Source of the DNA: Chiloscyllium plagiosum
Taxonomy: Eukaryota
Assembly: GCF_004010195.1 (NCBI RefSeq)
Contig: NC_057753.1
Coordinates: 3,503,514-3,567,513 of the forward strand
DNA: 64,000 bases
Direction: 5' to 3'
The position numbers and the translations under genes were made by a program. Below, piece by piece: positions 2,284-30,656 of the stretch (position 1 is its first letter; each line of letters begins with the position of its first letter). Under the pieces are notes generated by a model. The model was not told the origin of the DNA and did no database searches. It worked only from the letters and a program-made list of their open reading frames with translations.

Positions 2284-2620
2284 CCAATTTGACAGTGACA
2301 GAGGTACTGTTTGGATGAAGCTGCGCTCTCTGCCTTGCTTATTACCTGTCCCACATGTCAGTGATAGATCTCCTGGTACCATGACTGCTGTGATATGAAA
2401 CCGAATTGCTGCAAAGTATTTTCCGTTTGATTGCCTGTCCATCACACCACTCTGTAAGTTTTGTTCTGCATTCACTTATGCGAGAACTGACAACACTGAT
2501 TGGATAACAGTTGCTTTCACTTTTGATCAAAATGTTAGCTATTTGCAGTAAGAAACCGAAAACGAGATATTGTTCATAGAATACTGTAGTCAAAGTTATT
2601 ATATTCTTGTCCACAACAGC
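2284..2620 (+). pseudogene. GPR139/GPR142-like GPCR pseudo-exon (TM1 end to ICL2)
   Basis: NLTVTEVLFG*SCALCLAYYLSHMSVIDLLV/MTAVI*NRIAAKYFPFDCLSITPLCKFCSAF..DNTDWITVAFTFDQ/LAICSKKPKTRYCS* aligns with exon 2 of the intact gene; stops and frameshifts; pyrimidine tract then 'tacaa' where the acceptor should be. Confidence 0.85.
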
Positions 2621-2649
2621 AATCGTTAAAAAAAATCTTGTTTTACTTT

Positions 2650-2930
2650 ATATATAGAATGCCTTCCGCGTGGAAGCAGGCAATAAGGTGTATTTCATCC
2701 ACTTCGACACTTTGAAGAGGACCCCACGCAGACCCTTCACATTCGTGTAACCCTAGGGTTCCTATGGTTAATCTATCTAATCTTCACATCTTTATAATGT
2801 GGGAGGACACCAAGGGAACAAACCGCCAGACGGAATGAATGTGCAAACTTCACATAAGCAGTCGCCCAAGTGTGGAACTGAATCTAATTCGTTCGTGTTA
2901 AGAGCTAACGTGCTACCAGGTGTAGACTGA
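2650..2930 (-). mobile_element. tRNA-derived V-SINE (HE1-like), decayed
   Basis: Similar to the better-preserved copies at 15927 and 18770 (tgtgggagga…gaatgtgcaaacttcaca). Confidence 0.65.
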
Positions 2931-4236
2931 GTACTATACCTTGGTTCTGTAGCGTTAATCAATGTGCTATACATCAAATGTATTGATCACATATAAATTG
3001 TTTGAATCCATTTTAACCACTTATTCATTTTGATTTTACTTTGAAATGTTCTGACCATCGGAAAAAGTCCACAGACCAACAAAACGTGGAGTAGACTCAG
3101 AGTTCGGAAATATGGAGAGAATTAGAATGATCCAAAGCTGAAAAGTGGACAAAGTGCATTATATATGCCATATTGGCAGCCTACTCAAAATACATACGTT
3201 ATTTATTATCACGCTCATCTGAATCCGAATTGCTGATCTTGCTTGGGGTTCTACTCCCTCTTTTACTTTCAATGAGATACTTTATTTACTGAGTTCTCTT
3301 ATTTATTCTGGAATACAATAAAAATTCAGAACCAAGAAACACGCCAAAACATTGTTGGAGTTGATGGATAAACACACTTTAAGAAACAAAATGAAAGCCT
3401 AATATTAATAATGCCCTCTTTCCAACATCTTTTCCTGGTTTTCCAAATCCTAGGTAAAAATATCGACTGAGACCAACCTGAATTGTGGTGAATTGATAGC
3501 AGTTGGTTTTGAACTGATCTTACTGTGTTATGGAAATTTGAAATTCACTAATAATTCTCTTGGACTTCAATAAGAATTGCATTGTCGATTTAATACCAAC
3601 CATCACACAAATCATTTCGAAATTTTAGCAATTTTACTAAAATCAGGTTTTCCATGAAAATCTCTCTCCATCTGTCTCTGTCTCCTCCAACTCACCAACT
3701 CGAATCATTTTGGCTCAGGCTCTAAATATCATCTTTTTTGCTGCGCACCGTCACAGCTTCTCCACTGAACAACAATTTTGAAACCTTATTTCGATGCTCA
3801 TTAACGTAGTAAAAACCACAGACGATTTTAGTTTTGTTTACTCTTTAGAATGAAGTCATATCTAATACGAGATTATGAGTACAATATTCGATGTTACAAA
3901 GGACGTGGAATTTCAGCGATCAAGTCACACTTTCAAAGCAATTTGTTGCAATTTCATTCCATTGCTCCTTCTTCAGATCGCTTTTATCCTTTCATGCTCC
4001 AGGATATTTTGTCACACCTCTCTGTTCTTCTCTAAACAAATAACATAATTCCTTGATCCAGGAAGTGCCTTTACATGATTTAAATAGCTTCCGACAGCCC
4101 CTGAGACAACTTCCTATCCGGTTGCAAAATCTCATCCTTCCAGCCTTGAATGTGCTATCGCTCCACGTTCTCCCCACCAACGTAATATGTTCACTGTCGA
4201 TGGAAAAAAAATACAGAATTTCAAGCAGCATTTATT

Positions 4237-6720
4237 GTCATAGAGTCCTGCAGCACGGAATCAAGCCATTTGGCCCAAATTGGTCCATGCAGATCAAAAC
4301 ATCCATTGTTATAGACAAAGCCAGACTCCCTCAAAACATTCCAAGAAAGTAGCCAGGACCCTAACTTTGCTAATTATTTTAAACAGGTGTACAGTGGATA
4401 TTGCAGGAGTCATGCAGCTGGCCAACCACTAAGGATTTTTAAACAAAACAGAACCTATTTGCAATATTACCAAATGAAACGCAGACAAAAGAGGACAGTA
4501 TATAGAATAACTTAACCTATCTGAAAACCAAGCAGACTATCCCGACTTAATGTTGCTGTTCCAAATTCCTGCAACACTCCCAATAGTCACGCCTTGGCAC
4601 AAAAGATAAACTCAAACACAATGTCTTAGAGGAGAAAGTGAGATGGCACAGATATGAAGCATGGAACCCCTTCTTCCATGTAACTATTTCATTGACCAGC
4701 AGACTCAAAATGAACGAATGGATTTCGTGAACAGCCCGTCTGCTTAAAAAAAAGCCTAAGCAAGCTAAATCAGAGAAATGCTGAGCTGGTATAACTGGCC
4801 ACTCCCCTTTCATTGTACAAATGACTTTTTTCAAAACCTGAAAGCATTTTTCCTGAGGCAATATCTGTTAGCTATATAAAATTTGCCCTAAAATTCGTCA
4901 AACGTAGGCATTTTGGTATCGCTACTTTTACGAACTCTCTGGAAAAAATGGACAAGGACAGCATACCATTGTCAAAGGAGCAGCATTGTCACAACGTCCA
5001 TTCCCCTGCACTGCACCAATATCCTTTTCATATTTTCCGATACATGCATTTGTCCAAACGCTTGTTAAATGTTGTCAATGTATCCTCAAACACAGCCGTT
5101 GGCAGCTCATTCTGTATATGAACTACCTTCTGCGTAAAAACATTGCCCCTCTGGTTCCCTTTTATTGTTTCACCTCTAACCTTAGACTGATGCTGTCTAG
5201 TCCTCGATTTCACAACTCTGGGAAAAAGTTTGAGTGCACTCACCGTATCCATACCTCTCATGATCTTATACACCTCGATACGGTCCTTCCTCAGTCTCCT
5301 GCGCGCTAAAGAAAAAAAGTCCTAGGTTGTCCATCCTCTCCCTATTTCTATGACAATTGAGTCCAGGCAACATCCGTGTAAATCTCTTCGGCGCTCTTTC
5401 CAGTTTAGTAACATCTTTCTTAAAACAAGGTCACCAAAACCTAACACAATGCTCCAAGTGCCACTTAACCAACGTCCTACATAACTGCAGCATAACTGCA
5501 AAATATCGATACGCAATGCCCTGACTGATTAAGGCCAGTTCGCAAAAAATAAAACCCTTCTTCACTGGCCTGTGTACCAGAGACTCCACTTTCAGAGAAA
5601 TATGAACCTGAACTCGAAGATCCCTCAATTCTGGTACATTCCTTAATTCCCTACCATTGACCATGAAACTCCTAACTTGCTTTGACATTCTAAGAAGCAA
5701 GATCTCACACTTACCTATATTACACTATACTTGCTATATCTCAGCCCACTTCCCAAGTTGGTCAAGGTTCTGTTGCAATTGCTGATAAACTTTCTCACTG
5801 CCTACTTTATTGCCAATTTTAATGGCATCTGCAAACTTACTAATGATGCCTTCTACATTCTCAGACAGATCATTGAATAGATTTAAAAATGCAATGGTCA
5901 CTGCACTGACCCGTGAGGCACTAAACTAGTCAGTGGTCTCCAGTCCGACAAACACACTTCCACTATTACCCTTTGCTTCCTACCATCAAGGCAATATTGT
6001 ATCTAATTTTCTAGCTTGCCTTGAATTCCATGCGATTTAACGTTCCAGATAACCTAGCATGTGAAACTTTATCAAAGAGCTTACTGAAATTCATATAGAT
6101 TACGTCGAATGCCCTGCCCTTGTCAACCTTCCTTGTCATTTCATCAAAACACTCTTAACAATTTGTGAGGCATGATGTCTCCCAAACACAGAACCATGTT
6201 GACTTCTCTTAATCAAGACATGTCTTTCCAAATTCATGTGTATCTTATCGCGCTGAAACTTCTCAAGGTACTTACCCCAACACAGATGTTAAGCCCAATG
6301 GTTTCTAATTCCCAGGCTTTTCTTTGCAGCCCTTCTTGAATAACAGCACAACTTTCACTACACTTCAGTCTTTCGGGACCTCACTTGTGGCTAACGATAA
6401 TGCAAATCTATTAGCCAGGCTCCCTCAATTTCATCTCGAGCCTCTTGCAGTGTGCTTGGATATAGCTGTTCAGGCCAGGAGATTTATCCACATGCATATA
6501 TTCTAAAACATCCTGCATTGCGACATGGACTATCCCCAAGATATCACTACTAACTTCCCTCAGTTCCTCAGTCTTCATGCACTGACACAGTGCAGAAATA
6601 TTCATTGAGAGCCTAGCTCATCTTTGGCGGTTCTGCATGAAGTTGTCCACTTTGGCCGTTCAGAAGACTCATTCTCTGTCTTGGTATCTTGGTAATCTTT
6701 TCACTTTAATATACCTTTAA
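4237..6720 (-). mobile_element. CR1 LINE, decayed 3' half; its 3' tail is split by the insertion at 4307-4993
   Basis: ORF fragments YKIMRGMD..LFP..SRTR.H, GNVFTQKVVHIQNELP, VDKSPG, and FAD motif (gcatctgcaaactt); tail at 4237-4306. Confidence 0.85.
4307..4993. mobile_element. Solo-LTR-like element (TGT…ACA)
   Basis: Ends tgttatag…tgtcaca; interrupts a CR1 tail; flanked by ACATCCAT/ACGTCCAT; homologous to 19281-19881, 49254-49904 and 59455-60020. Confidence 0.7.
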
Positions 6721-7119
6721 TATAAAGTAGCTGTTTGGATTCAATATAATTTTTTCATCCAAAGCAATCTCATGCCTATTTGTGAAAAGTCAGCAAGTCG
6801 CAAACATCAGAGTTTGAATGCATTGCAACCAGAACCATACCATTCAATATGTGGATTAACCATCACGTGTTAATTGGGTGAATGAGGTTGCAAGTATTCC
6901 TTCAACGTTGACAGGTACAAGGACAGCCACATAAATCAGGAACTTTGAAAATGCTTGATATTTTAAAAAGGGAGTAAAATTGGACGTTTGTTTTCATTAC
7001 TCGGGGCGTATTCGGTCTTGAGTGAAACCCTTCGCTGCAAGAAGTGTTAGAAACCATTCAAACACGTTTTTTCGTCTGCTCACTACCTTCACTGGGGACG
7101 AAGGACAACAAATGATGAT

Positions 7120-7804
7120 CATAGAGTAATGGAGCTGAGGTGGAGATCCGATCTTCAAGTTCCTAGCTGGGACGATTACCAACAATAAGCATTCTGGTTT
7201 TGATGCTAAGGAAGGCATAATAACGCCTAATCCTTCTTAGTTGGCTAAGGAAATTCGGCATTTGCAGATAGACTCTCGCCAAATTTTATAGATTCACCAT
7301 AGAACGTATTCTATCTGGATTCATCACAGCTTGGTATGGCGACTGTTATGACCAGGATGAGAAGACACTACAGAGCGTTGCCAATACAGCTCTGTCCATC
7401 ACACAAGCCAAGATTCCATTCATTGACTTTACCTATATTACTCACTGTCCTGTAAAGTCAGCCGACATCAATAAAAATCCCTTCCACCCTGTTTTATCAT
7501 CTGTTCCAAAATCTTTCATCAGGCAGAAGATAGAAAAGCTTAAACACACGAACCAAAACGTTGAAAAACATCTTCTTCCCGGCTGTTATTAGATTTGTGA
7601 ATGTACCTCTCAAATTTCAAATCAACTGTTGATTTGGGGGTTTTTTTTGGTGCATCTTCTTTGCAACCACAAATCAGCATATCTTATTCTTTTCTAATAC
7701 GCTATGATCGTGTATGATATGATCAATGTATGTGGCATGTGAAACAATACTTTTCACTGTATCTCAGCACATGTGACAACAATAAATCAAATCAAATTAA
7801 ATCA
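7120..7804 (+). mobile_element. Rex-Babar-type LINE 3' fragment
   Basis: TIERILSGFITAWYGDCYDQDEKTLQSVANTALSIT; ends in aataaatcaaatcaaattaaatca; same family as 42110 and 51580. Confidence 0.75.
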
Positions 7805-8641
7805 TTCAACTTGTACTCGATTTCGTATGTCCTTCCAAACTGCATCACTTTCTATTTTCCAAGACGCAGTTCTACTTGTCAAAGATCGACTTATTAGTCC
7901 AGGCCATCAATATTGTCCCGTGTTCGAAGTATTTCTCCTCATTGCGTTTCTCCTGGCATAATTTTAGTGTCGTCTCAGAAGCTATAGATTAAACCTCCTA
8001 AATTTACGTTTCCATCATGAATACATAATAAAACAACAAATAGCAAGTCACCCAGATTCTCTGACTGACGGGAAGAATGATTGTTGAAGTTATTTGTGGA
8101 TTATCTCCGCTCTGTTTCTGTATAAAGTTGTTTCTAAGGGGAGAGCTATGATTGTACAAATTCAATAGTGATCGGAGGAAGACTGCTGTGAAGACGTGAC
8201 TTCACCAAACTATGTCGAACAGTGGAATTTGTAACAGTGAAAACACAATAAATGATTATGTCATTAAACCATGACTGGAGGAAATAATCTCTATAAATAT
8301 AATTGTAACAACGGATTTAACCAATGCATTTCCACTGACATGACTTAACGGAGTCAATCAGGTGTTATTTGATTTGACAGTCCTTTTAAAAATGTCATCT
8401 ATCATTTCGAAAAAAAAACAAAGAAAGCCTGCAGAATGAACCCAATTAGGAGCTACGTTTGTACGTAGCTATGTCTTTTTTCTGGAATATTTGGAAGACT
8501 AATTTTTCCAACACTACTCAGACCACATTTCTTACCTCTTTGCCAGGTTATTTGACAACAGTAAGTGCTGTACACCGTCTTGATACAGAACTCTGTGATT
8601 TTCTTCTGTCTAATTGGTTTTCATTGAATCTTTGCCAAAGA

Positions 8642-8787
8642 AACTGCCAAATTTAATGCAGCACGAAAACTGCACACTGGTGTGATAGAAAGGAAACTGG
8701 ATGGGAAATAAATCCCAGCAATCTGATTTACTATCACAGCTGTGACCATGACGAGGAGACCTGTTACTGCCATTGACACCAAGGAGT
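8642..8787 (-). pseudogene. 146-bp displaced duplicate of GPCR pseudogene segment 11874-12019 (TM2-TM3)
   Basis: Direct comparison: identical apart from one substitution seen (tgacgagg vs tgatgagg). Confidence 0.9.
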
Positions 8788-10023
8788 GTGCATTGTCTAT
8801 CTTTTAGTTTACATATCTTATGGCCTTTATACTGATACAACAATCTCCTCTCTTGTGTGTTTTGATGCATCACTCATTGTGATCTTGTTGGCTGGAAGAG
8901 TAGGTTCCAAGGAAGACATGGCCGAGACCTACTCCTTATTCAAATGTTTATATTTACTTTCCTTATAAAGGTATTGACAACTACTCAGGTGTAAGCACAG
9001 CAATGACATCTTTATATAAGTGAAATAAGTGAGAGTTTGATCTCTGTCTTTCAATGTATTACCAAACTTGTCCTTGTGAAGCAGGTGCTCAGGTTTAGGA
9101 AGCGAATCGGATGCTAAACTGGACCAGAGATTGAGCATAATTTAATTAGAGTGGTGGCGAAAGGAGGATTGATTATTTGATTGGTTTATTTTCACGTGTA
9201 TCTTGTTAAAATGTACAGTGAAAGGTGTTGTATCATGATGCCACTCTCGGACACCATCTCAATACACAGACAAATAAACCAAAATATACAATACAAAGGC
9301 AGAAAAAAAAGTACTAAGGAGCTTGTCCAACTTTACAGTCCTTGTTATGTGCTCCATTATGGCCTATTGCCCTCGTGGCCAGACACGAGCTTCCTTCTCG
9401 ACGCTGCAGCTGCTGGAACATAAGTCGCCAATCTTGGTGACATCTCGCCTCCAAAGACGCCATCTTGGTTACATTCCTGATTAGTTTACAGAAGCATTTG
9501 TACAATTATTCACAATGGCGAAGGAATGTAATGGAGAGTGTTCAGAAACAATTAGTTTAGGTGGTAAATCATGAATAAAACCCACCTTGCCCTGTTATTG
9601 CATCTCCAGACTTTATTTCAGCTCAGGCACTATCTTGATTTAACATGGGTTACAGTGCACCTGCAGCCATACCCAGATCAAACTCCATATCTTGTGAATG
9701 AATGAAGACACTTTCTAATCAACCGCAGGGATCTTATGATCTGTCTGTGGCTTTGAATTCCTCGCTCAGGTGTCGAGATGCCACGAGAGCGTTCCTGCAC
9801 ATGACTGATCTGTGGATCAGTGGAATGCACATGGAGTAAGTGAATATGAATAATGGAAGCGAAAACCCACTCAAAAAAGTGTACACGACTGTAGAATATG
9901 CATCCTTGAATTAATTCAGTGTGGTACTATCACAAAAGACATGAGACACCATATGGGTCGGTGGGACACAATATATGCTATGGATGCAGAGAATAAAGAA
10001 TCGATTGCAATGTGCAATATACA

Positions 10024-10025
<2 letters not shown>

Positions 10026-10107
<82 letters not shown>
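10026..10107. repeat. (CA)n microsatellite, about 41 units
   Basis: Perfect dinucleotide run. Confidence 0.98.
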
Positions 10108-10112
<5 letters not shown>

Positions 10113-10269
10113 AATTTGACCGAGTGGATATTCTACGCTTCCTTTAAGTATTTTAAAACTAATATAATTACCATCACTGGACGCAGAATGGGCCCCACTA
10201 TCACTTTAATCACTTCCTCTGGCCTATTAACCAAGAAAAGGTCAGGTTTTGCTCTTGGTTTTGTATTGG

Positions 10270-10565
10270 TGAGAGGTCGGAGAAGTGGGTGGAGAGATAC
10301 GTGGGATGAAGAAACACAAGTAGGACAGGTCATGAGGGCGGAACCGATTTGGAAGGTTTGAACTGGGCTAAGGTGGGGGGAGGGGATTTGAGGAAACTTG
10401 TGAAATCACATTGATGCCATGCGTTTGGACAGTGCCGAGGCAGAAGATGCAGCATTCTTCCACCAGGCATTGGGTTTTCAGGGAATGGCTATGGAGGAGG
10501 CCCAGGACCTGCATGACCTTGACTGAGTGGGAGGGGGAGTTGAACTGTTCGTCAACGGTGAGGTT
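10270..10565 (-). mobile_element. Penelope-like element GIY-YIG C-terminal fragment
   Basis: VDEQFNSPSHSVKVMQVLGLL…EECCIFCLGTVQTHGINV matches the PLE endonuclease C-terminal pattern HFNSPSHS…E…IF.LG…P.G.N. Confidence 0.75.
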
Positions 10566-10774
10566 GGAATTGTACCCAGGTCGCTGGCACTGTGAGGCAG
10601 TAGTGCTAACCACTGAATCACAGCGTTCCTGCACTGTAACTCTGAATGTGTAGATGCAAGAAAATTGGAATTTTACTGCAAGTTAACACACTGACTTTTG
10701 TAGTCATGCAATATTCTTTGATAATTTCTAAATTCACCCCTTAAGCAATGACTGATGGCACCCTCATGTGATGA

Positions 10775-10995
10775 TATTAGATTAAATTAGATTACTTACA
10801 GTGTGGAAACAGGCCCTTCAGCCCATCAAATCCACACTGACCCGCCAAAGCGCAACCCACGCAGACCCACACCCCTATATTTACTCCTTCACCTAACACT
10901 ACTGGCAATTTAGCATGACCAATTCACCGAACCTGCACATTTTTTGGATTGTGGGAGGAAACCGGAGCACCCGGAGGAAACCCACGCAGATGCGG
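10775..10995 (-). mobile_element. V-SINE (HE1-like) 3' half; a tRNA-like head fragment lies at about 10565-10630
   Basis: V-domain core tgtgggaggaaaccggagcacccggaggaaacccacgcaga; (tctaa)-type tail. Confidence 0.85.
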
Positions 10996-11051
10996 GTGTG
11001 TCAGAAAAAATGTTGCCTTGTAGTATACAAAAGTTTCTTGATTACTCCCTA

Positions 11052-12082
11052 TCAATATTTGAATATTTTAATGAATAAGTTCAAAGTAAATCTCACTCCA
11101 TGCTTTAGCTCATCTCTAATTTTGGTCTGTGTCACAGCATGAATAAATGGGTTGATACAGCAGCTCAGTAACTGTAGCATATCTTCGGTTTGTTCCAAAT
11201 AAAATGTGGAATTGCATAAAGTGGATCCTGAGGAATAATATACTATTCGCAGTTTGAACATGAAGAATATTTTGGAAAAGTAACAAATACAACAGAATAA
11301 AACTGCCAGAGATGGCAAAGAGTAAAATAATGGACTTTTTCCGCATCTCTGGGTCACAGTGATTCTCTCCATTGTTCTGAAGCTGGAGTCTTTTACGGGC
11401 TCTATTGGCCAAGAGAATGCGTCTGATGGTCAGGACATTTAGTAGTAAAATTAGAATGAAAGGGAGACATGGAGTTAAAATAGAATAGATCCAGTTATAT
11501 GCAACCAAGCAGGTGATGTATAATATGCTACAAAACCAGGGTATATTGTTATTTACGTTCCTAGGTTCAAATTGAAAATATAAGACACGGTTTTTCATGC
11601 AGCACAGGGTAGACATTACTCCTATCACCCACGCCGCCACCTTCATAGTGCAATATTTTAGTTTCAGGATCTGTCAAGATATAGCCACAAATCGATCAAA
11701 GTTAACCAGGCGGAGTTGTCAATAACTGCCAAATTTAATGCAGCACATGCAGCACAGGGTAGACATTACTCCTATCACCCACGCTGCCACCTTTATAGTG
11801 CAATATTTTAGTTTCAGGATCTGTCAAGATATAGCCACAAATCGATCAAAGTTAACCAGGCGGAGTTGTCAATAACTGCCAAATTTAATGCAGCACGAAA
11901 ACTGCACACTGGTGTGATAGAAAGGAAACTGGATGGGAAATAAATCCCAGCAATCTGATTTACTATCACAGCTGTGACCATGATGAGGAGACCTGTTACT
12001 GCCATTGACACCAAGGAGTAAGTAACGTATCTGGAGGGACCACAGGTTCGTTGAGACATGATTGCAACCAGTGCCAGATTAG
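11052..12082 (-). pseudogene. GPR139/GPR142-like GPCR pseudogene, exon 2
   Basis: Three ORF pieces (11814-12059, 11116-11646, 11052-11372) tile the paralog at 29746-30656; frameshifts, a deletion before DRF, a 150-bp internal duplication, and an acceptor reading AA instead of AG. Confidence 0.92.
11597..11896. repeat. Tandem duplication, 2 x 150 bp, inside the GPCR pseudogene
   Basis: 11597-11746 vs 11747-11896, two substitutions seen. Confidence 0.95.
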
Positions 12083-13532: not shown

Positions 13533-13602
13533 CTGGAAGATAAATAACTGCAAGGACTGGATAGTAAATGGCAAAGACCAATCCTTTTGGAATCTCATGC
13601 AT
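13533..13602 (-). pseudogene. GPR139/GPR142-like pseudogene, exon 1 (70 nt)
   Basis: MHEIPKGLVFAIYYPVLAVIYLP+G followed by a GT donor; same length and phase as exon 23939-24008. Confidence 0.9.
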
Positions 13603-13653
13603 TTCTGACAGATATTCTGAGCACTTTCCATGAATCATTGAATCGTGCCTATA

Positions 13654-13710
13654 TTTATATAGGGTTAGATATGCATTGCAGGCTCCAAGGAGTTAATTAG
13701 TTGCATTGAA
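13654..13710 (-). promoter_or_regulatory. Putative promoter: TATAAA, O/E-like site, homeodomain site
   Basis: TATAAA at 13659-13654 (57 nt before the ATG); CTCCAAGGA at 13683-13691; TAATTA within 13693-13700. Confidence 0.5.
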
Positions 13711-15926
13711 TTTTTCTGTAATTATTTTTATTGAAATATGATGATCAGTGCAGGTTCTGCTTGGCTACTCCGTTATTGGATTGAATGTTCATTTCGTGAG
13801 AGCTAAAATTGATCTAAAGTGAGAACTGCAATGATTCCATGAGGATCAAGATTTTATTTCGGCGTAAGTCCAAAGCAGTGAGGTTCATTAGAAATCTTAA
13901 TGAGATAAACGAATTTTTAAACGGATGCACTGTCAGATTCTACCACTATTCGAACCTTTGGGCCATGTTCAGGTGCCACATGAATCTAGCCAATACTGAT
14001 CCAGTAAAATATTACTCCTTACAGATGGGTTAAGATTCCTTTAACTTTGTTAGTTTCACCGTTCTTTGATGTCATTTCACTACAATTAAATTTCGTGCAG
14101 CGACATTCGGTTCAATGAATATATAATCAATATGTTGAGATGTGATACAACATGATTAAGTTCAGCCCGGCCTGCTCCAGTTCATCAGCATCAAAGTTCA
14201 AGAAGAGTTTAATAAATCTGCACAGTTACTTTTATTTAAGACATCATCAGAAGAATAAATCTACATTTAGACTTGACATGTGCGCTTCAGTTCGACATAC
14301 TAACATGAAATGTGATTCACTACAAGTCAGCCAGTTGACATTCAGTGTCGCAAATTCCATCACAAAATGATTGCATTCGTTGGACATAGACTAGTACTGC
14401 ACAAATATTTTGCGTTGATAAAATCCTATTCAGCACGTTTCATTACCAATTCAATACCAATTCTACAAAAATGTATTGGCTAACACTTGTGATGTTTTAA
14501 GGGTCATCTTAACAGATACATGAAGCGGTTAATGAATAGAAGACCTGGACCATGTCAAGGCTGAAATTACTTCATTGGGACTGGTATCCAATCACCAAGT
14601 CACTAATCTCCCCGACGGCATTATCGCACTTGGATCACTTCCTCTATTTCTGCCTGTGAAATTGGTAGCATGTTCCAAATCATGACATTCCTCTTGTGCC
14701 TTGAGTATACTCGAAGAGATTCGACATCGTCTGGTGGTAATTGCATCGAGGCCGTGATATCTTCCCTGTCCATCTCCTCGAAAAGGAGGAGAGTCCATGG
14801 AGTCTGAGAGACTTGTTGAGTAGTCTGAGGGGCAGAATAAACTTTGCTCTTGCGCCATGTGCGAGATTGCAGTATTCATGCAGTACACGTGCTTATTCAG
14901 AGCACCCTCTCCGACCCGATCTTTGTACATCCCTGGTTTTGAGCTCACGTCGAAAGTGCTTCTTACTATGCAGGGCCCTCCCTGTGATTTCAACAGCACA
15001 CATCCTTCCCCACAAGGAAAGTCTGTCTCTCATTTAGAGGAGTCTTCTTTCTGACATTGGCGTTCCTGATGCTTTGTCAGCCTTCTGCCCCTCACATTGC
15101 CCGCCCCCCCCCCCCGCCCCACCCCACACACACAGACCATGTCTGGGAAATCAGGTTTTACATGATGCAGTCTTCGGCCCGTCAACAACTACTAGCCTTG
15201 TAGTTGCGTGAGGGGTCGGCTGCTAATCAAACAAGAACTGGGGCAGTTCTTGGTGTCGAGTGAAACTGTTCCACAAGCCTACCTTCAAATGTTGGGATGG
15301 TCTTTCCAATAGAGTATTGGGCGATGGATTGCACGGAGCTTCATAAAATGCCATTCGACTTTAGGAAATACTCGAATTCCCTGCTGGTGAAGGATGGTCC
15401 GCTATCACTGACCAGTACATCCAGGTGTCCGATGATTGCAAATGATTCTCACAACATTTCAATCGTCGTCACTGTGTTTGATGAATGAACTCGATGCGCG
15501 TGCAACCACAATAACTAAGAACATTGAGCCTATGAAAGCATTGACGCAGTCGATGTGTGACCATCCATTAACACGAATGTGTGGAAGTTTTCGGACATTT
15601 GTTTTGTCCTTTGCGGCACTCTAGGCACTTCCCCACAAATGTTGCTATTTCAGCATCCAATCCTGGCTTTCAGACACAACCTTTTGCCAAATTCTTCATA
15701 TGAGATCACTGAATGACCCAGTCTCGGCCAGCAATCTTTGATCAGGACAATCTGTTGCTCCCCATAAGCCAATCTTTATAGTCAACTGGTGTCACCAGGT
15801 TCAAAGAGATTTCAGTTCCGACTGTAATGGCCCTTTGGTTTTCTCCATCACCACCAGCTGTTTCAGTTTTGCCAGCGCAGGATCTTTTTGGTTCTGCAGT
15901 CTGTAATTGTCAGCAGTTACCAGAAG

Positions 15927-16275: not shown

Positions 16276-16833
16276 CAGATTTCCAGAACGTTTAAAAGTC
16301 GAGCAGACTCTTCTAGTGGCTGAACCATCAATCGTGTATCCACCAGTATGAGGCACTCAAGGCATCCGCATTTGCCACTTGGCCTTGGGGATGGCATTCC
16401 AATTGTTAACTGAATGCTGTCAGAATGACAGCCCGACGCTGAATTATACCTGAAGCTATGGGAAGCACTGTCCTGTAGAGCTCTAGTGGGGGTTGTGGGC
16501 CGTTGCTATTGCAAAATCACATCTGTAAAGTTATTGGCGGGACTTTCTCACATCAAAGAGAACCGTCAAACTTTCCTTTTCTACCTGGGTCTAATTACAT
16601 TTGGCATCAGCCAAAATTCGAAAAATATGCAGAATTGGGCATTCCTCTCTGCTGGGTCACCGGTGAGCCAGCACAATCCTGGTACAACACGAGGACCGAT
16701 CACATGCCAGTGCTGATCGCAGTGTGCCAACAATCGCTGCTTCTTTTTTCCCCTAAAGGTTATACCTTGACGACAAGGCCATTTTCAAGATTGTCCCTTT
16801 TTCAACATTAAATGTAAGGTTTCCAGCATGGAG

Positions 16834-17030
16834 CTGAAAATGTGTTGCTGGAAAAGCGCAGCAGGTCAGGCAGCATCCAGGGAACAGGAGAATTGACGTT
16901 TCGGGCATAAGCCCGCCTGAAACGTCGATTCTCCTGTTCCCTGGATGCTGCCTGACCTGCTGCACTTTTCCAGCAACACATTTTCAGCTCTGATCTCCAG
17001 CATCTGCAGACCTCACTTTCTCCTCAAAGA
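16834..17030 (+). mobile_element. Penelope pLTR fold-back mini-insertion with 13-bp TSD
   Basis: Inverted arms of about 75-80 bp; TTCCAGCATGGAG at 16821-16833 and 17031-17043. Confidence 0.85.
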
Positions 17031-19013: not shown

Positions 19014-19280
19014 AACTCAGCGGTCTAACACAAATCAAATAATAGATAAACATTTTATTTAAGATTTTCGTAAATTCTGAGTGTCCATTCCTAAAATGAT
19101 TTTGTACTTCTCCTTCACATCTATTCAATAAAGTGAATGTCTTTACATTCTTCATTGCACAACTATGCAACTATAATAACAATATACGCAGTCCTAATAA
19201 TTTGTTGTTCTTCAAATGTGGTTCTTCCCTAAGTACTAAAAATGCATGTTTTGCTTGACGATGAATTTTAAATACTGTTT

Positions 19281-20852: not shown

Positions 20853-20990
20853 GGAGAAAGTGAGAACTGCAGATGCTGGAGCTCAGAATCGAGAGTGTAG
20901 TGCTGGAAAAGCAGGGCTAGTCTGGCAGCATCCGAGGAACAGGAGAATCGGCGTTTCAGGCATAAGCAATTCATCAGGAATTGATGAAGC
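20853..20990 (-). mobile_element. Penelope pLTR fragment with degenerate hammerhead core
   Basis: Minus strand attcctgatgaattgcttatgcctgaaacgccgattctcc; homologous to 16834 and 62212. Confidence 0.75.
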
Positions 20991-21009
20991 TGAAGGAAGA
21001 TTCGATGGG

Positions 21010-21430: not shown

Positions 21431-22179
21431 TCTGCCAAACCAGACAAGAATTTCCAATGTATCATATTAATTATAGGACACAATAGAACCTAAAACACGT
21501 GGACCAGCTCATTATGATAACTCTTCAAACGAAAAACACAGTGTTGGCGAACGTCAGAAGAGCTGGCCTCTCTGTGGATAGATTTTTAAAAAATGAATGT
21601 TTCGAGGTCCGTATCATCCTCCCTCTAAAGAATTTCTGAATATCAGCCATTTGGTTCCAAATGTTAGCTCTTTTCCTCTCTGCACAAATATTCCCACTCC
21701 TACTCTGTTTCTAATTTAATTTTAGTTCGCCAGCATACAAAGTGCGTTTATTTTTTAATGGAAGTGGCTGTGTTAATTTAGTTGCGTTGATGGGAACTTT
21801 GTCACCTTTGCACTTAACTGAATGGATTTGGATGTATCTACGCTGCATTCAAGCACTTTGAGATGAATATGTCAGCACTTAATCATTCTGAAATGCACTA
21901 GCCCATGAAGAAATCATCTTTATTAAATTTAGTTGCCCCTTTTAAACCTGAAAACGCATTATTGAATGATTCTGTCCACAGCTGACAAAACCATACTGAC
22001 CCAACAAAGTACATATTGATGTTAAGTTTATTGAACATGATTTATCCACACAGAACTTAACTGAGGTCAAATATTCTTCACATCTCTGAAGATCAAATTC
22101 CTGATTTGACCTTGGATCTCATGCTAAATACAATCATATTAAAATGAACGTAAGTACCCTCAGTGTGGCATCATTCATT

Positions 22180-22880
22180 GAATCATACAGTAAAGGAGAG
22201 GCCGTTTGGCTTTCCCTCTGCACTGACAAAAATGTATATATTACTTACTACTTAGTCCTATCTCACACCAGGCCCACAGCCTTCAACATTATGATAACCG
22301 AAGTGCAAAACTAAATGTTTTCAAAAAGATTGTGAGGTTTCCTACCTCAACTATATTCCCACGAAGTGAGTGCCACCCGAGGATGGAAACGGCTTTCCTC
22401 AAATCCAAACTAAACCTCTTGACTTTCACTTTAAAATGATACCCACTTATCATTGACATTTCGATTCAGAGGAAGAACTGCATGTATTCACCCTGTCTAT
22501 GACCCTAATAATATTGTGCACTTCAGTCAGGTCCCCCATCAAATTCTCTGCTTCAAAGAAAAAAAAATGACCTTATCTAGCTTTGCTTCATAGCTGATAC
22601 ATTCTATCCCAAGTATTCTGATGAGCATCCTCTGCATCACCTACAATGCAATGCCATGCTTCGTCTCGTGTGGTGACCAGAACTGGACAGAGTCCTGCAG
22701 CTGTGAAATAACCAAAATGGTGTTCGACGCCAACATAGTCTCCATGCTCATAATATCTACCCCTTAAACTCATGACGTCAAGTGTCCTTTATGCCTTCTT
22801 ATATATCATCTTAACCTGTCCTGTGGCCTTCAGGGATCTGTGGACAAATATCCCAAGCTTCCTTTGTACGACGAGCTTCC
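22180..22880 (-). mobile_element. Decayed CR1 3' fragment
   Basis: ggtgaccagaactggacagagtcctgcag and caccctgtctatgaccctaata-type motifs shared with the other CR1 copies. Confidence 0.6.
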
Positions 22881-23269
22881 TACACGTTGAATGTGAAATG
22901 TCTGCAATTATTTGAACCTTTGTTGCAATTAATTTTGTACTCACTGAACGCAAGCACAAGGATCAAAACCTATACATTCGTATGTCATTAGCTAAAAAAG
23001 ACATTTGTGCATTAAATTTGCACGTACTTATTACGGTATATTGACACTGAACAAGACTGTGTTGTCACCTATCATGGTGAGCTGGCACTCTCCACATTGG
23101 TCATTAGGAGGTCCCAAGGTAAAGGCCAAAGCGAATATGTTGATAAAGAACTGAGCCTTTCTGCATTAAACGTGATTATTTTTGACTGTACCTATCTGCA
23201 ATAATTGCCGACATGTTTGCATTAAAATGATTGGAAATGGCGGAAATATTGATCACGAGGGGGCATAAT

Positions 23270-23505
23270 GTGTTTGGAGGAAGACTTAAGAGATAAGTCA
23301 AAGGTAGGTACTTACACAGAGAGTGCTGGCTGCATGGAATGCACTGCCAGCATTGGTAACAGAGTCAGATACATTAGTGATATGTAAGCGACTCTTTGGC
23401 AGGCACATGGAAGATAGTACAATGAAGGGCATGTAGGTTAGTCTCATCTTAAAGTAGAATAAAAGGTCGGCACAACATTGAGGGCAAAAAGACCTGTACT
23501 GCTGG
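23270..23505 (+). mobile_element. CR1 3' end
   Basis: TQRVLAAWNALP motif followed by a CR1-type 3' UTR. Confidence 0.7.
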
Positions 23506-23825
23506 AAAAAATGGTCTGTGCAAGATCTGGAAACATGTTGCATTTAATCAGCAATTACTTCGACAGAGAAATGACCTGAAGTGAGAAACTAATTAAGTCT
23601 CCTTCAGAATGATTTTACTTATCAAATGTGATCAACCGTGAAAACCATTGCAGTATATAGAAAGTTTGTATATCTGTGCATAATATTGCTGCGATAATTC
23701 AGTCGTTTCTACATTTTTCATGATAGGGCCAAGCTGTCTTCTCATGAAATGATAAACATTCCATTCAATCAAATCTTAAAATCCGCCTAGCATCAGCTGC
23801 ACTAATATGTTTGTTGCAATCGCTT

Positions 23826-23890
23826 TAATTCATGCAAGAAAATTAAACCAAGTCCTCACATCCCAGGAGTCTTTAAAGAGCTATAATAAG
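23826..23890 (+). promoter_or_regulatory. Putative promoter of the intact GPCR: homeodomain sites, O/E-like site, TATA-like box
   Basis: TAATT at 23826-30, AATTAA at 23841-46, TCCCAGGAG at 23861-69, TATAAT from 23882 (57 nt before the ATG). Confidence 0.5.
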
Positions 23891-23938
23891 GACTATTCTA
23901 GTGTGAAATGTGGAATGCAGACATAGTTGTTGATAAAA

Positions 23939-24008
23939 ATGCACCAAGTGCCATCAGGCTTGCTATTTGCCATTTACTATCCTGTAATTGCAGTGATTGG
24001 AGTTCCAG
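23939..24008 (+). CDS. GPR139/GPR142-like class A GPCR, coding exon 1
   Basis: MHQVPSGLLFAIYYPVIAVIGVP+G, then GT at 24009; joins exon 2 in frame (G|CT = Ala) to complete TM1 GVPAN; a homologous exon exists at 13533-13602. Confidence 0.88.
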
Positions 24009-25139
24009 GTAGATATTTGTCAGCTACAATAACTTTTTGTTTCCATTTTGCCAGTAGCACAATGCACTTTGCTGATATCCTTCCTTCCATTAAATTGAAT
24101 GTTATGTCCTATTCACCAGTTTAATATCTATATTTTAAATGGTATTTCTTTTTTTCTTCTCTTATAATATCATTTTCATTATTTCATAGCAGCAGTTCTT
24201 TCTACAATCTTATGGTATCTTCAATATTTTGACATATTTTCTGGCATTAGATGTCTAATTCATCTCACTAAACATTCTAATTTCAGACCCTGGCCAAAAT
24301 AACTCGTTGTGTCTAATTTGTCGCCTTTTTGTTACGCTTGTAATTATTATTTTATCGCATTGATGATGTATTATTGTCACATTTGCAATCTAATTAGATT
24401 TTGTTGTATTATTGGCACGATAAAAACACTTGTTCTCACAGATATTCTAATTCCATGTGTTATAAACTATGCTGTTGTGGTTGAATGTTAAAAATATCTA
24501 ATGATATGCATATAGTTCTGAAGTAGCATTCATAAATTAATTGCGACTGAGTTTTTATGACAATATATGGATGTCGTTCTCTTGTCAGGTTGCAATGTCT
24601 TTGTTGGTGAATTTTCACACATTGCACTGTGTGTCTAGTTCCATTGTGGCGTGCACATTAATCTTGCTGGTGAATGGTGCTGTGTTATTTGATTGCAAGT
24701 GTATGCACTGCAATTGCTGGCAGTGGTAGTGGCAGGACAATTCTCACAAATTAACACATCATTGAAGAGTAGTGAACCATTAAATAATTGTCCACTGAAC
24801 AAATTTAGTGAACAGACGCCATTTGCACCTAAAGTTTGGCAGTTTCGCTAACAGTGTTACTGTTGCTCTTCCCTGGAAGGCAGTACTTGTCCGGAGTTCA
24901 TAGGAACATCACGTCTATTCTCAGTCTGTAAAATATATCTTACTTGCAAGTTACTGCATAAAAAGCTAGCCATTTTTGATGTTTGTAGTTCGATGATTGA
25001 ATAATCCTTGATTTCTGGTGTAATTCATTCCAATGAGCATATTTTCTTTTAGCTAATGTGAAATTCAGAGGAGACATGAATTTTCTGCTTAACAAGATAT
25101 GACAAATAGAATTCCACACTGGTCAACGTTGCGGCCTTA

Positions 25140-26560
25140 CTAATTGTGCTTTGTTCAAATGACTTAGATGAATTGGGATTGTACTGGAGGGTTCACGACG
25201 ATGAAACCTGGGTGGAGCATTTCAGCTTACCAAGATGGTAGATTAGCCTCGGTTGTTAATGTTGAAGTAGAGAAGGTTGAGCAGGGATTTAATGGCGGTC
25301 GATAAGACTCTGAGGGTCATGGGAAAAATAAATGGAGAACAGCTGAGTTCCTTCATCAAAGGTCATTAAGAAGGTCGTTTATCTCAGCTAGAAAGAGTGA
25401 GCTTTGGAGTGGATTGAGATATAAACGTTTGTACTCAGACGGTTTTGGGAGATTCAGTGCATCTCCAGGAGGGTAATTAAAGTGAGAAACATCACATCTT
25501 GGACGAGCACTTGGAACATCACAACATTGAAATCTGTGAGCCTGGTATGGAAAGTGGGATAGGTTATGCAACAGTACATTTTTGGTGATACAGACTCAAT
25601 GAGCTGAATGGCTACTTCTGTACTGTATGGTTCTATGATAATATAAATGGATGCAATATATGATTCCACATTTTATTTATTGTACAAAGATAAGTAGAAG
25701 ACCCATAATTGTGGAGAGAACTTATAGAGTCCCCAAATTTAAATAGATGGGTGAAATGAGTGGGAGAATATATGACTGATGGAGACAATGTGAGAAAGTG
25801 TGGACTTAATATCATTAACAGGAAGAACAAGAAACACAAGGCATGTATGAAATGAGGAGAATGTGCGGAAATCTGGAATTCAAATGAATTTATGTGGCGT
25901 TATGCAGAAATAATAAACAGAGTATCCAGGAGCAAGATATCGAATGTGTCATATATTGCTCGTGGATTGAAACCGAATCAGCATTGTTTTGATGCAGTCG
26001 TTCAGGGGAAACGTGAAACCATACGCAGAGATGTGTAAAGCTTTAGTGTTCTCATTTAAGAAGGGACAATATTGCACCAGAAATTTTCAGGTAAGAAAAA
26101 AAAACCTAATTAAATTAATGAACGCGTTATGAGGAAAGATTTTCCGGCTGCAGTCGGTATTCATTAAATTTTCGAAGAATGACAGCTGATTTTGAAGGAA
26201 CATGGAAGGTACCGACGAGACAACTGATGACTTGTGAAAGTTAATTTCCTCGAGAGGAGTGGATGCTATTTAGACATAATTAGTCTCGGATTTGAGATGG
26301 AGGTCTGACAATGTTGTCTGTTATTTCTAATAACGGCCCCTGAATCCGTAGCACTCTGGCTCCCTCAGAGTGGTGGAATCACGCTCTTTGAATCTTGTAA
26401 ATATTTGATGTAGTTCAAGATATGATTAACAAAGGAGATACAGAGCTGCATTAGGAAGTTTTAAAATGGATTTAATGCCACGTTCATATCATGCAATGGT
26501 CCTGTTGAATAACAGAGCGAGCTAAAGGGGCACAGTAGTCGTTTCCTGGTCCTACACTGA
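25140..26560 (+). mobile_element. Two very decayed CR1 3' fragments in the GPCR intron
   Basis: Remnant motifs (agggttcacgacgatgaaacctggg; ctccctcagagtggtggaatc) and 3'-UTR-like ends near 25630 and 26550. Confidence 0.5.
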
Positions 26561-27309
26561 AATAGTCACTTATGCACCTCTGAGTTCATATGACTGCTAA
26601 TGAGAGATTTGTTTCCTACTTTTTGCAATTGGTAATGTCTCAAGTGTTTACATCCTCACTATTTTATCCCCATGAAGAGAGGTATCATAACTGGTGAAAC
26701 TCACATCCAGTATCTGTCTTTTTATTGAAATATCCAGTTTGGGCAACATTAATCAGTTATTCCCGGTGTGGTATATAACATAGTGTTTTGCATTGCATTA
26801 TAATGCTTTGTCAGAGAGATACCTGGTCATTTACGAAACTCTGCAATCAGCTCTGCTCATAACATTCCAAGTTATTCTTAAGTCACTAGTACATTGTGTC
26901 ACAGATATCTGAACAGGAACATGATTTTTTCATTCACTTTCTGCTGTTTTGCAATAGTTTTGAGTAAAGTAATTATTAACTTTTCCAAGCGTGAATGACA
27001 TTAAAATAATTTATTCCAAGGAAAACAATTGGGTCCTCAGTAAAATATAAACTGTGTTGAGTTAATTTCTACAATTTTGCAATTTCCGTTATTTGATTAC
27101 ATTGATATTCTCGATACTTGTTTGTTAATGTGTTATTTTCCTTGTGAATTGGATAACCTTTTATTGGTTCTGATGTGAACTTGATTTCTTGTTGTCCTCT
27201 ATTGGTTCCTAGTAGGCTATGTTGACAATGTTATTTGGAAATTTCAGATAAACATTTTTCGTTAATTAAGAAAGGGTAATAAGGGATATTGGCCAAAGAC
27301 AGGTAAAGA

Positions 27310-29425
27310 AAAAAGAACAACGAAAATTTACAGCCCAGGAGCAGGGCCTTCGGCCCTCCAAGCCTGAGCCGTTCCAAATCCACTGTCTAAACCTGTCGTC
27401 CAATTCCTACATATCTGTGCCCCTCTGCTCCCCACCTACTCATGCATCTGTCCATGCACATATTTAATGAGTCTACCGTGCCTATTTCGACTACCTCTGT
27501 TGGCAATGCGTTCCAGGCACCCAACACCCTCTGTGTAATGTACTTGCCGCGTGTATCACCCGTAAACTTTTCACCCCTCACCTTGAACGCGTGATCTCTC
27601 GTTGTTGAATCCTTCATCCTTGGAAAAAAGCTTATCTCTATCTACCTGTCTGTGCCCTTCATTATTTTGTAGACCTCAATCAGGTCCTCCCGCAATCTTC
27701 TTTTATCTAATGAAAATAATCCTAACCTCCTCAACCGCTCTTCATATCTAGCACCTTCCATACCAGACAACACCCTCGTAAACCATCTCTGCACCCTGCC
27801 AAAGCATCCACATACTTTCGGGAATATGACAACCAGAACTATACACAGTATTCTAAATGTGTCCAAACCCAATGTCTTGTACAGTTTTAACATGTATACT
27901 TATACTCAATCCCCCGTNNNNNNNNNNNNNNNNNNNNNNNNNNNNNNNNNNNNNNNNNNNNNNNNNNNNNNNNNNNNNNNNNNNNNNNNNNNNNNNNNNN
28001 NNNNNNNNNNNNNNNNNNNNNNNNNNNNNNNNNNNNNNNNNNNNNNNNNNNNNNNNNAAAAAGCTTATTAATATCTACCTGTCTGTGCCCTTCATTATTT
28101 TGTAGACCTCAATCAGGTCCTCCCGCAATCTCCTTTTATCTAATGAAAATAATCCTAACCTCCTCAACCGTTCTTCATATCTAGCACCTTCCATACCAGA
28201 CAACACCCTCGTAAACCATCTCTGCACCCTGCCAAAGCATCCACATATTTTCGGGAATATGGCAACCAGAACTATACACAGTATTCTAAATGTGTCCAAA
28301 CCCAATGTCTTGTACAGTTTTTACTTATACTCAATACCCCGTCCGATGAAGGCAAGCATATCATATTCTTTCTGACCACTCTACCCACCTGTGCAACAAT
28401 CTAGAGGGTACAATGGATCTGCACTCCCAGATCTCTCTGCTCATCAACTTTTCCAAGGCTCTTCTGGTTACTGTATAATTCGCTCTCGAATTAGACTTCC
28501 AAAATATATCACCTCACATTTGCCCGCAATGAACTCCATCTGCCACTTCTCTGCCCAACTCTCCAGTCTATATGTATTCTTCTGTATTCTTTGACAGTCC
28601 ACTATGCTTTCTGCTACGCCACCAGTCTTCGTGTTATGTGCAGACTTGCTGATTATACCAACAGTGCCCACTTCCAGATCGTTTATGTATATCACAATCA
28701 ACAGTGGCCCAAACACTGATCCCTGTGGAACACCACTGGTCACCTTTCTCCATTTCGAGAAACTCCCATCAACTACTACTCCCTGTCTCCGGTTGCTCAA
28801 CCAGCTCTTTATCCACCGAGCTAGAACACCTTGCACTCCAAGTAACTTCACTTTCTCCGTTAGTGTAACCTGGGAATCTTCTCAAACACTTTAATAAAGT
28901 CCATGTTTGTGACATCTACAGCCCTTCCTTCATCTATTAACTTGGGCACTTCCTCAAAGAGCTGTATTAAGTTGGCAAGGCACGATCTCCCCCGCAGAAA
29001 ACTATATTGTTTTTCACTGATAAGCCCATTCTTTTCCAAATATAAATAGATTTTATCCCTCAGAGCTTTCTTCAACAACTTTCCCACCACTGACGTCAGG
29101 CTCACTGGTCTGTTCTTACCTGGAATATTTCTACCACCCTTCTTGGACAGGGGGACAACATGAGCAGCCCTCCAGTCCTCCGGCACCTAACCTGTGATTA
29201 CGAATGGTGCAAAGATATCTGTCAGGGCCCCAGCTATTTCCTCTCTCATCTCCCTCAGCAATCTGGGATAGATCCCATTCAATCCTGTGGATTTGTCCAC
29301 ATTAATAACCTCTAGCCTATCCAACACATCTTCCCTACTTAGGTCAACATGATGCAGAGTCATTAAACTTTTATCTCTAATCTCAACATTCATCATGACC
29401 CTCTCCTCAATGAGCATCGATGCAA
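27310..29425 (-). mobile_element. CR1 LINE ORF2 3' half in the GPCR intron, spanning the assembly gap
   Basis: PEDWRAAHVVPL.KKG, RPVSLTSVVGKLL, SGVPQGSVFGPLL..YINDL, LFSLDKRRLREDLIEVYKIM. Confidence 0.92.
27918..28057. other. Assembly gap (140 N)
   Basis: Run of N. Confidence 1.
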
Positions 29426-29745
29426 ATGGATTTAGACCAGAGATCTGCCATGATATAATTGAAAGGCAGAACATGTTTGAGGGATTGAATGAGGATAATT
29501 TGTTCTTGTGTTCCTATTATGTATTTTATCTCCTAAATGTTTAATCTGTGTTGCTATTTCAAATTGTAATCGATGTGACAGTAAGGTGTAATTGTCAACT
29601 TAGCATTATGACTAAAAATTGAAGCTTGACAGAGAAGTTTGCAAAACATTTAATTATGTTGCATTTGAAATACCACTATTCCAGTTCTGCTTTATAATCT
29701 CTCTAATGCACCTCTTTCCTACTGCTCTCTCACTCTTTGCCGTAG

Positions 29746-30656
29746 CTAACTTTGCCGTGATCGTGATCATGTCTCGAAGCCGATGTGGTCTAACTGGGTG
29801 TATCACGTATTACCTGGTTTCTATGGCTGTGACAGATCTTCTGGTTATGATAACAGCTGTAATATTAAACCGGATTGCTGGGATTTACTTCTCATCCAGT
29901 TTCCTGTCGATCACACCCGTGTGCAGTGTTCGTTCCGCCCTAAATATTGCAGCAATTGACAGTTCTGCCTGGTTAACGGTAGTCTTCACTGTTGATCGAT
30001 TTATATCTATTGCCTGTCAGAAACTGAAATTAAAATATTGCACTAAGAAAGTGGCATCACGCATTATAGGAATTGTGTGCATGCTCAGCTGCGTAAAAAA
30101 TATATTTACCTACTTTCAGTTGGAACCTAGATATATAATTGACAATATACCTTGGTTCTGTAACATAAAACAAACACTTTATACCTTTCCAGCATGGATC
30201 GCTTATGTCTGGATACGTTCCATATTAACCCCTTTCCTCCCATTCATTCTGATTTTGCTGCTCAATGCTTTGACTGTCAGACACATTAGAGAGGCCAATC
30301 GAGCCCGTAGGAGACTTCGGAACCAGAGCAATGGCATGATTGACCCAGAGATGGAAAAGCGGAGAAAGTCCATTGTCTTACTCTTTGCTATCTCAGCCAG
30401 TTTCATTATGTTGCATTTGTTGTCTTTTGTGACGATGCCTTATGTCCGAATTGCAAACACAACGTATTCCTCAGGTTCAGGTAATCGCAATTATATATTC
30501 ATTCTCCAACAATGTGGGTACATGCTTCAATTATTCAGCTCCTGCGTCAATCCTTTTATTTATGCTGGAACACAGAGAAAATTCAGAGATGAGTTAAAGA
30601 ATGGGGTTAGATACATCCTCAGGTACTTTGTGAAACTATTTATTTTTTGCAAATAG
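29746..30656 (+). CDS. GPR139/GPR142-like class A (rhodopsin-like) GPCR, coding exon 2; spliced product 326 aa
   Basis: Open frame with class A motifs: YLVSMAVTDL, TM3 Cys, SAWLTVVFTVDRFISI, ECL2 PWFC, PFILILLLN, LLFAIS, NPFIY, helix 8 KFRDEL; acceptor ctctttgccgtag; stop TAG. The 345-aa ORF-track N-terminus is intronic. Orthology to GPR139 not established. Confidence 0.93.

Follow-up and report, generated by a model that had tools for sequence, protein, structure and literature searches.

What kind of receptor family leaves a living gene beside dead relatives on a shark chromosome, and what might such a family do? We addressed this question for a 64,000-nucleotide stretch of Chiloscyllium plagiosum DNA (RefSeq assembly GCF_004010195.1, contig NC_057753.1, positions 3,503,514 to 3,567,513 of the forward strand), here called the window. 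It contains three gene-sized copies of a G-protein-coupled receptor (GPCR) gene, of which A is alive and B and D are dead, together with a fragment, C. An earlier note on this DNA had described an intact gene, a full pseudogene, an older pseudo-exon, and a short duplicate, lying in both orientations, as a cluster of receptors like the orphans GPR139 and GPR142. We found that A belongs to a birth-and-death multigene family, with many paralogues, species-specific clades, and pseudogenes beside an intact gene. Judged from sequence, this family would quite likely be a diversified ligand-sensing repertoire.

Gene A is a class A (rhodopsin-like) GPCR. It is intact, as had been noted, with two exons and a spliced open reading frame of 981 nucleotides encoding 326 amino acids (Table 1). 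The protein matches PF00001 (7tm_1) with an expectation value (E) of 4.6e-22 and 79.2 bits against a cut-off of 30.5, and it matches no other Pfam family at E <= 0.001, the olfactory, taste, and vomeronasal Pfam families included. A seven-helix structure is predicted for exon 2 with a predicted local distance difference test score (pLDDT) of 91.3, and a fold search with this model matched class A receptors at Z 23-25. A protein search with exon 2 of A as query gave 971 matches among 2792 candidates, and our analysis covers the best 120 of these. All 120 are from sharks, of 11 species, and are 54-73% identical to A, with the nearest coming from carpet sharks and catsharks. An N-terminus like that of A is found in homologues, for example P0002. 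The class A residues N1.50, D2.50, D-R-Y/F, C3.25-C45.50, P5.50, and NPxxY are complete in A; W6.48 and P6.50 are replaced, as they are in most close relatives (P6.50 in 110 of the 120). Of 132 sites conserved in the family, gene A deviates from the consensus at 10; 17 of the 120 relatives reach this level, as do 16 of the 46 from species other than horn shark. Thus, its deviation is within the normal range and no greater than that of other members from outside Heterodontus.

Most homologues are labeled "probable G-protein coupled receptor 139," a label explained by GPR139 being the best match of solved structure. By sequence, human GPR139 (PDB 7vug and 9m42) is the solved receptor nearest to A (E 5.5e-6, 29 bits). 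A family profile, built from 49 rows of the family and its sister receptor (described below) and 6 rows from two GPR210-type clades, gave GPR139 105.6 bits versus 82 for the next receptor, the neurotensin receptor. GPR139 was also the top human receptor for P0222 alone and for P0274 alone, two proteins introduced below. No olfactory receptor (OR), TAAR, V1R, V2R, or T2R was among the PDB matches listed for A or for the profile. A and GPR139 further share a two-exon structure (for GPR139, in the available part of PMC7318219), a similar start of transmembrane helix (TM) 1, and a W-x-T-V-x-x-T-x-D-R stretch in TM3. To this extent the description of A as GPR139/GPR142-like stands, GPR139 being the nearest solved receptor. 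However, A scores 104-121 bits against non-mammalian vertebrate orphans, against 29 bits for GPR139. In the fold search GPR139 reached Z 23.8, where the top match reached 24.9 and the top 50 lay within 23.4-24.9; thus it was not singled out and tied with many peptide receptors. A and GPR139 are 19% identical over 253 structurally aligned residues, and human and zebrafish GPR139 are 70% identical (PMC7318219, available part). The residues of the GPR139 pocket for Trp and Phe named in the same source, E108, F109, H187, W241, R244, and N271, are N, I, R, H, S, and Y in A, so none of the six is kept. GPR139 is a highly conserved single gene, whereas A belongs to a multigene family. On these comparisons, "GPR139/GPR142-like" holds only at the superfamily level.

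The closest relative of the shark family is instead a seemingly unnamed receptor of amphibians and sturgeon. We built a careful tree of 47 rows: 23 family members, 6 amphibian and sturgeon proteins, 10 + 2 GPR210-type proteins, and 6 unnamed invertebrate-like receptors, three of them as outgroup. The trees took in neither GPR139 nor GPR142. The family and the amphibian/sturgeon receptor grouped together with support of 100/100 on a stem of 0.88. Among 25 matches in a word-limited search, this receptor formed one cluster per species in 20 amphibians and the sterlet, and no amniote, teleost, or coelacanth member was present. Its members, among them P0235 (newt), P0274 (Xenopus tropicalis), and P0290 (sterlet), are labeled "probable GPR139" or hypothetical and are 26-29% identical to A. 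They have in common with the shark family a "DPE..RR" stretch from intracellular loop (ICL) 3 to TM6 and an "LK..YCT" stretch in ICL2. They differ in an unusual set of class A motifs (P0235 and P0271-P0290), with N at 2.50, no P7.50, and, in the amphibians, S at 1.50.

Beyond the family and its sister, the best-scoring proteins were the coelacanth protein P0222 and its clade. This clade has 100/100 support and includes sharks, ray-finned fishes, amphibians, and reptiles; A lies outside it, in another 100/100 clade. P0222 scores 70 bits against GPR139. Non-mammalian orphans named GPR210A and GPR210B, with an unnamed third subtype, have been placed with GPR139 and GPR142 (Rinne et al. 2019, PMC6504862); in its available part, that work does not cover cartilaginous fish and lists no amphibian members. 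The P0222 clade is probably one of these GPR210 orphans, and we infer only tentatively that P0222 or P0265 corresponds to GPR210A or GPR210B by name. The GPR210-type clade has separate shark members of its own, with one protein listed for each of Scyliorhinus, Stegostoma, and Pristiophorus. The annotation of two GPR210-type proteins, P0298 (Stegostoma) and P0396 (Hyla), as transmembrane protein 183A isoforms suggests a location of the gene in or beside TMEM183A in a shark and in a frog, which could serve as a synteny marker. The unnamed invertebrate-like receptors P0262, P0266, and P0268 branch outside the vertebrate clades.

We found at least 74 family proteins in the horn shark, Heterodontus francisci, among the best 120 matches. 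Only 6 of 2701 Heterodontus pairs are more than 90% identical; therefore, a few genes with several alleles or isoforms do not account for these proteins. In the same set, 54 of the 74 lie on a contig or contigs of one size, and likewise 13 of 17 in the whale shark. When the library was clustered at 50% identity, 101 representatives matched A at E <= 1e-30. A quick tree was made of the best 120 together with A, B, and three outgroup rows; on it, 7 changes sufficed for the Heterodontus label, versus a shuffled mean of 36.7. By this sequence-based measure, the tree shows a species-specific expansion in Heterodontus, and the lineage-specific expansion with birth and death proposed earlier is thereby upheld. 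A itself has no relative above 73% identity in this set. In DNA run X4, which, to judge by long pieces that differ little, appears to be from the same species, summed depth was 429 on the bin holding the first part of A exon 2, versus ~9-72 on nearby bins free of obvious repeats. A 6-base deletion present in B was absent from one DNA contig that showed 11 differences over 190 bases. The raised depth on coding bins hints at close paralogues in this genome and is not a copy number. One family member, P0114 (Rhincodon), is predicted as a fusion to C2H2 zinc fingers; this is probably a gene-model error and hints that zinc-finger genes adjoin a receptor cluster. We found no description of the expansion in the open-licence full-text literature, which excludes most subscription journals. 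The family, misnamed GPR139 in automatic annotation, seems to be undescribed in that literature; its mode of evolution is of a known kind, and novelty lies in the family itself and in its descent from a separate ancestral receptor.

The variation within the family is concentrated where a ligand would bind. Having numbered A by class A anchor residues, we compared mean pairwise identity at 30 pocket-lining positions, which we take from general class A structural knowledge, with that at other helix positions. In the 120 shark proteins the pocket was less conserved than the rest of the helices (0.56 versus 0.755, p 3e-6), as it was in 46 deeper family members (0.28 versus 0.52). The pocket was the more conserved part in the two low-copy clades used as controls, 20 amphibian orthologues (0.97 versus 0.81) and 53 GPR210-type proteins (0.78 versus 0.66). 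The cytoplasmic helix halves were the most conserved in both shark sets (0.82 in the 120 and 0.63 in the 46). Across 23 within-species sister pairs, pocket sites differed 1.44x as often as other helix sites (p 1e-4). D2.50, D3.49, and N7.49 are retained in 120 of 120 proteins and P7.50 in 118. The amphibian pocket has Y3.32, F3.33, Q, W6.48, K6.51, and N in 20 of 20 proteins, and several pocket residues of gene A are unusual, among them H6.48, for which 104 of 120 relatives have Y. Such variation would be expected if duplicates change their ligand and keep a shared signaling face. The variable pocket also supports the earlier comparison of this locus with sensory or immune repertoires.

We then considered how A and B in the window fit this history. 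Over 302 codons they differ by a synonymous divergence (dS) of ~1.2, with a ratio of nonsynonymous to synonymous divergence (dN/dS) of 0.19. Because dS is so high, A and B are, on this estimate, old paralogues; the birth is old and the death of B recent. In the quick tree, B groups with whale-shark P0010 and epaulette-shark P0027, both intact (support 99, 78% identity), a placement that dates the loss of B as recent. Since the A/B split is old and the closest relatives of B are intact in two other sharks, turnover in the window would be chiefly recent loss, and a recent local burst of duplication was not borne out. The 300-bp regions upstream of A and B still align, with a score of 49 versus 24.9 +/- 4.2 on resampling (1 of 300 resamplings as high), which fits shared regulation. 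Outside the exons and this proximal region, similarity was at or near chance: of 300 resamplings, 112 scored as high for the 5' end of the intron, 220 for the downstream side, 25 for the part farther upstream, and 7 for the 3' end of the intron. Neither A nor B has a 26-bp satellite array upstream. The 70-nucleotide first exon and the phase-1 intron in TM1 are indeed common to A and B, as had been pointed out, and they appear to be a family-wide feature and no mark of a recent A/B duplication. The unnamed invertebrate-like receptor P0266 starts just before the shark intron point, a hint at an ancient position for the intron in TM1.

These data suggest the following model. From one ancestral jawed-vertebrate receptor, which would survive as a conserved gene in amphibians and sturgeon, a large family of short two-exon class A GPCRs would have expanded in cartilaginous fishes. 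Through changes in TM3 and TM5-TM7 at residues that line the pocket, duplicates would come to bind different ligands, paralogues would signal through a common G-protein route, and copies no longer needed, such as B and D, would decay. The repertoire may then detect external small molecules or peptides in the nose, taste papillae, skin, or gill. The family resembles the OR, TAAR, V1R, V2R, T2R, FPR, MRGPR, and invertebrate Srw expansions in its clustered paralogues, pseudogenes, lineage-specific clades, and variable pocket on a conserved scaffold. It differs from the olfactory, taste, and vomeronasal families in matching only PF00001, and its origin would be separate. TAARs and Srw receptors derived from internal amine or peptide receptors. 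For TAARs, that origin is treated in the available part of PMC8890504. A features search tied the shark family to clusters with the Srw chemoreceptor domain, which we take as a lead only. Cartilaginous fishes have ~10-50 known olfactory receptor genes per genome despite large olfactory organs (PMC10116579, available part), and a relative paucity of GPCRs has been reported for them (PMC8455134, available part); in the available supplements of the latter there is a single mention, one orthogroup labeled GPR142. On the sequence evidence, we put the chances that the repertoire is chemosensory at about even. A bolder version, in which this is an independent, cartilaginous-fish-specific family of vertebrate chemoreceptors, larger than OR, TAAR, V1R, and V2R together and recruited from a neuropeptide-receptor-like gene that is single-copy in amphibians and sturgeon, is possible but falls somewhat short of that.

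Several observations weigh against this model. In single-cell RNA run X5 (same species label, tissue not given), no read fell on the bins of A exon 1, the first 600 bases of A exon 2, or the B exons in ~2/100 of the run. In the available part of PMC11979771, a catshark library of brain and olfactory epithelium has no GPCR among its 50 most specific genes, which speaks against the nose in particular, and in that of PMC10116579, TRPC2/Go microvillous cells account for the olfactory neurons of catshark. The shark family alone is weakly monophyletic (92/58), and the amphibian gene may therefore be sister to the family or basal within it. Most of the 150 listed representatives are without a species assignment, and those deeper members that carry a species name come from horn shark and little skate. 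The sister pairs were chosen by eye from the quick tree. In 8 putative cross-species orthologue pairs, pocket sites differed 0.94x as often as other sites (contrast with the within-species pairs, p 0.02) versus 0.16x in 9 amphibian pairs; thus, the shark pocket is less tightly kept. Part of this pocket pattern could also arise if selection on binding is relaxed.

The variable pocket and the turnover would equally be predicted if the paralogues were immune or barrier sensors, placed on leukocytes, mast-like cells, or mucosa to detect microbial or damage-derived peptides. In mammals, formyl-peptide and MAS-related receptors sense peptides of this kind. The relatives of the shark family are peptide receptors (SPR and the FMRFamide receptor; PMC12208981, available part), and cartilaginous fishes are reported to lack MAS1 and related receptors (PMC8455134, available part), which leaves such a role open. 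However, apart from the similarity common to class A receptors, we found no sequence link to the chemokine, FPR, or MRGPR families, and we consider an immune role unlikely, though far from fanciful.

The family could also be mostly the product of genomic drift, in which repeat-rich, slowly evolving shark chromosomes duplicate and retain a small dispensable gene, most copies are redundant or slowly decaying, and selection on binding is relaxed. Drift would agree with the death of B and D, two of the three gene-sized copies, with the high density of repeats like short and long interspersed elements (SINEs and LINEs) in the window, with the A and B exon bins being without reads in the portion of run X5 described above, and with the unusual pocket residues of A. 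It is harder to reconcile with a dN/dS of 0.19 between A and B even though B is dead, with activation and coupling motifs that are near invariant in the 120 proteins, and with upstream regions alignable still at a dS of 1.2. Differences also cluster in the pocket instead of spreading evenly, and A is no further from the consensus than other members from outside Heterodontus. Drift as the main explanation therefore seems improbable to us.

A further alternative is that the paralogues are internal neuroendocrine or reproductive receptors that read endogenous peptides or metabolites in brain, gonad, sperm, or rectal gland and whose diversity arose together with that of their ligands. GPR139 acts in the brain as a receptor for aromatic amino acids and peptides (PMC7318219, available part), catshark V2R genes are also expressed in testis and rectal gland (PMC11979771, available part), and the pocket of the amphibian sister is nearly fixed, as for one endogenous ligand. 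However, the shark copies do not retain that ancestral pocket. To our knowledge, endogenous ligand systems seldom need tens of fast-changing receptors, and we hold internal roles of this kind to be rather doubtful. Finally, it is barely conceivable that sharks have in A their orthologue of GPR139 or GPR142, with only a few local duplicates in the window: the best solved-structure match, the database labels, and the two exons in both would suit it, but the 19% versus 70% identity, the six changed pocket residues, the 74 or more paralogues in one species, and the existence of closer non-mammalian clades do not, and one-to-one orthology to either of the two, an outcome of the kind that the earlier note had raised, is refuted by identity and copy number.

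The positions of the receptor copies are given in Table 1. A and D are on one strand and B and C on the other; the earlier note had stated that both orientations occur.

Table 1. Receptor copies of the window and their parts, in order of position
Feature	Position	Strand	Remarks
Copy D, old decayed exon 2	2262..3378 (approx.)	+	TM1 to TM7, traced with a profile from 120 homologues
Fragment C	8642..8787	-	146-bp copy of B 11874-12019, 1/146 bases different
B exon 2, pseudogene	11052..12082	-	Frame broken, acceptor changed
B exon 1	13533..13602	-	70 nucleotides, open, GT donor retained
B upstream block	13680..13801	-	Homologous to A upstream; TATA-like element 13661-13650
A proximal upstream	23740..23938	+	Block alignable with B upstream (23740-23872); TATA-like element near 23882-23889, read from sequence; putative promoter
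A exon 1	23939..24008	+	70 nucleotides coding, ATG to phase-1 GT donor; short N-terminus and first half of TM1
A intron	24009..29745	+	5.7 kb, phase 1 inside TM1, GT-AG; LINE-like remnants; 140-N scaffold gap 27918-28057
A exon 2	29746..30656	+	After AG acceptor; remaining TM1 to TM7, helix 8, stop
A candidate polyadenylation signal	30899..30904	+	Sequence motif

Copy B is a full pseudogene, as first described. Its exon 1 with the GT is identical to that of A at 54 of 72 bases, where the runner-up site on either strand reached 35 of 72. The exon 2 acceptor (12084-12083, minus strand) reads AA in place of AG, and the exon carries a frameshifting deletion near 11848, an in-frame stop, and more frameshifts near 11520 and 11240. 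D2.50 is replaced, and B departs from the consensus at 21 of 128 sites. B also carries a 150-bp tandem duplication (11596-11896), the units of which differ at 2 of 151 bases, with short microhomology at the junction. The short duplicate seen earlier, C, does exist, but we rejected it as an independent fourth gene; with its one difference, it is a fragment copied from the dead B. Mapping of DNA contigs did not distinguish real from artefactual for either C or the tandem duplication, as repeat-derived joints dominated. The two differences between the units and the junction microhomology lead us to lean toward both being real rather than assembly artefacts.

The older pseudo-exon, D, is indeed old and decayed, but it does not end near 2593, as had been thought; it continues to TM7 and carries an insertion of ~300 bp (about 2575-2915). 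Its first part is ~65% identical to A and to B alike. We rejected D as a daughter of the dead B, since it is without the deletion of B and is equally distant from A and B. The D acceptor site (2282-2283, plus strand) reads AA, as in B, probably by coincidence. No exon 1 of D was found in 1-2250, and a family profile search of 31-64 kb gave no additional copy.

The window as a whole consists of vertebrate DNA in which SINE- and LINE-like repeats abound; it has a single scaffold gap and gave zero Rfam matches. In the intron of A, ~290 bp are repeated at 94.5% on the two sides of the 140-N gap (27625-27917 and 28058-28342), which resembles an overlap left by scaffolding. Near-perfect palindromes of 160-184 bp at 16831-16990 and 51928-52111 consist of a head-to-head short repeat, which is also present at 20853-20978 and 62210-62301 and is abundant in the DNA and RNA runs. 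An inverted LINE-like pair of 956 bp with 89% identity lies 19 kb apart at 35997-36942 and 56409-57364. The segments at 28329-29513, 40901-42000, 54840-57220, and 62168-62715 are presumably reverse-transcriptase-like remnants.

Whatever the tissue in which the family acts, at least 74 paralogues in one shark, labeled "probable GPR139," are at odds with the 10-50 ORs (PMC10116579) and the paucity of GPCRs (PMC8455134) stated for cartilaginous fishes in the available parts of those works. Where the family is expressed can be asked directly in existing shark tissue atlases. The amphibian sister gene, present in Xenopus with a near-fixed pocket, offers a practical starting point for identifying the ancestral ligand and for tracing how a repertoire grew out of one receptor. 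If the family is an independent one of chemoreceptors, it would explain how sharks have large olfactory organs with only 10-50 known olfactory receptors.

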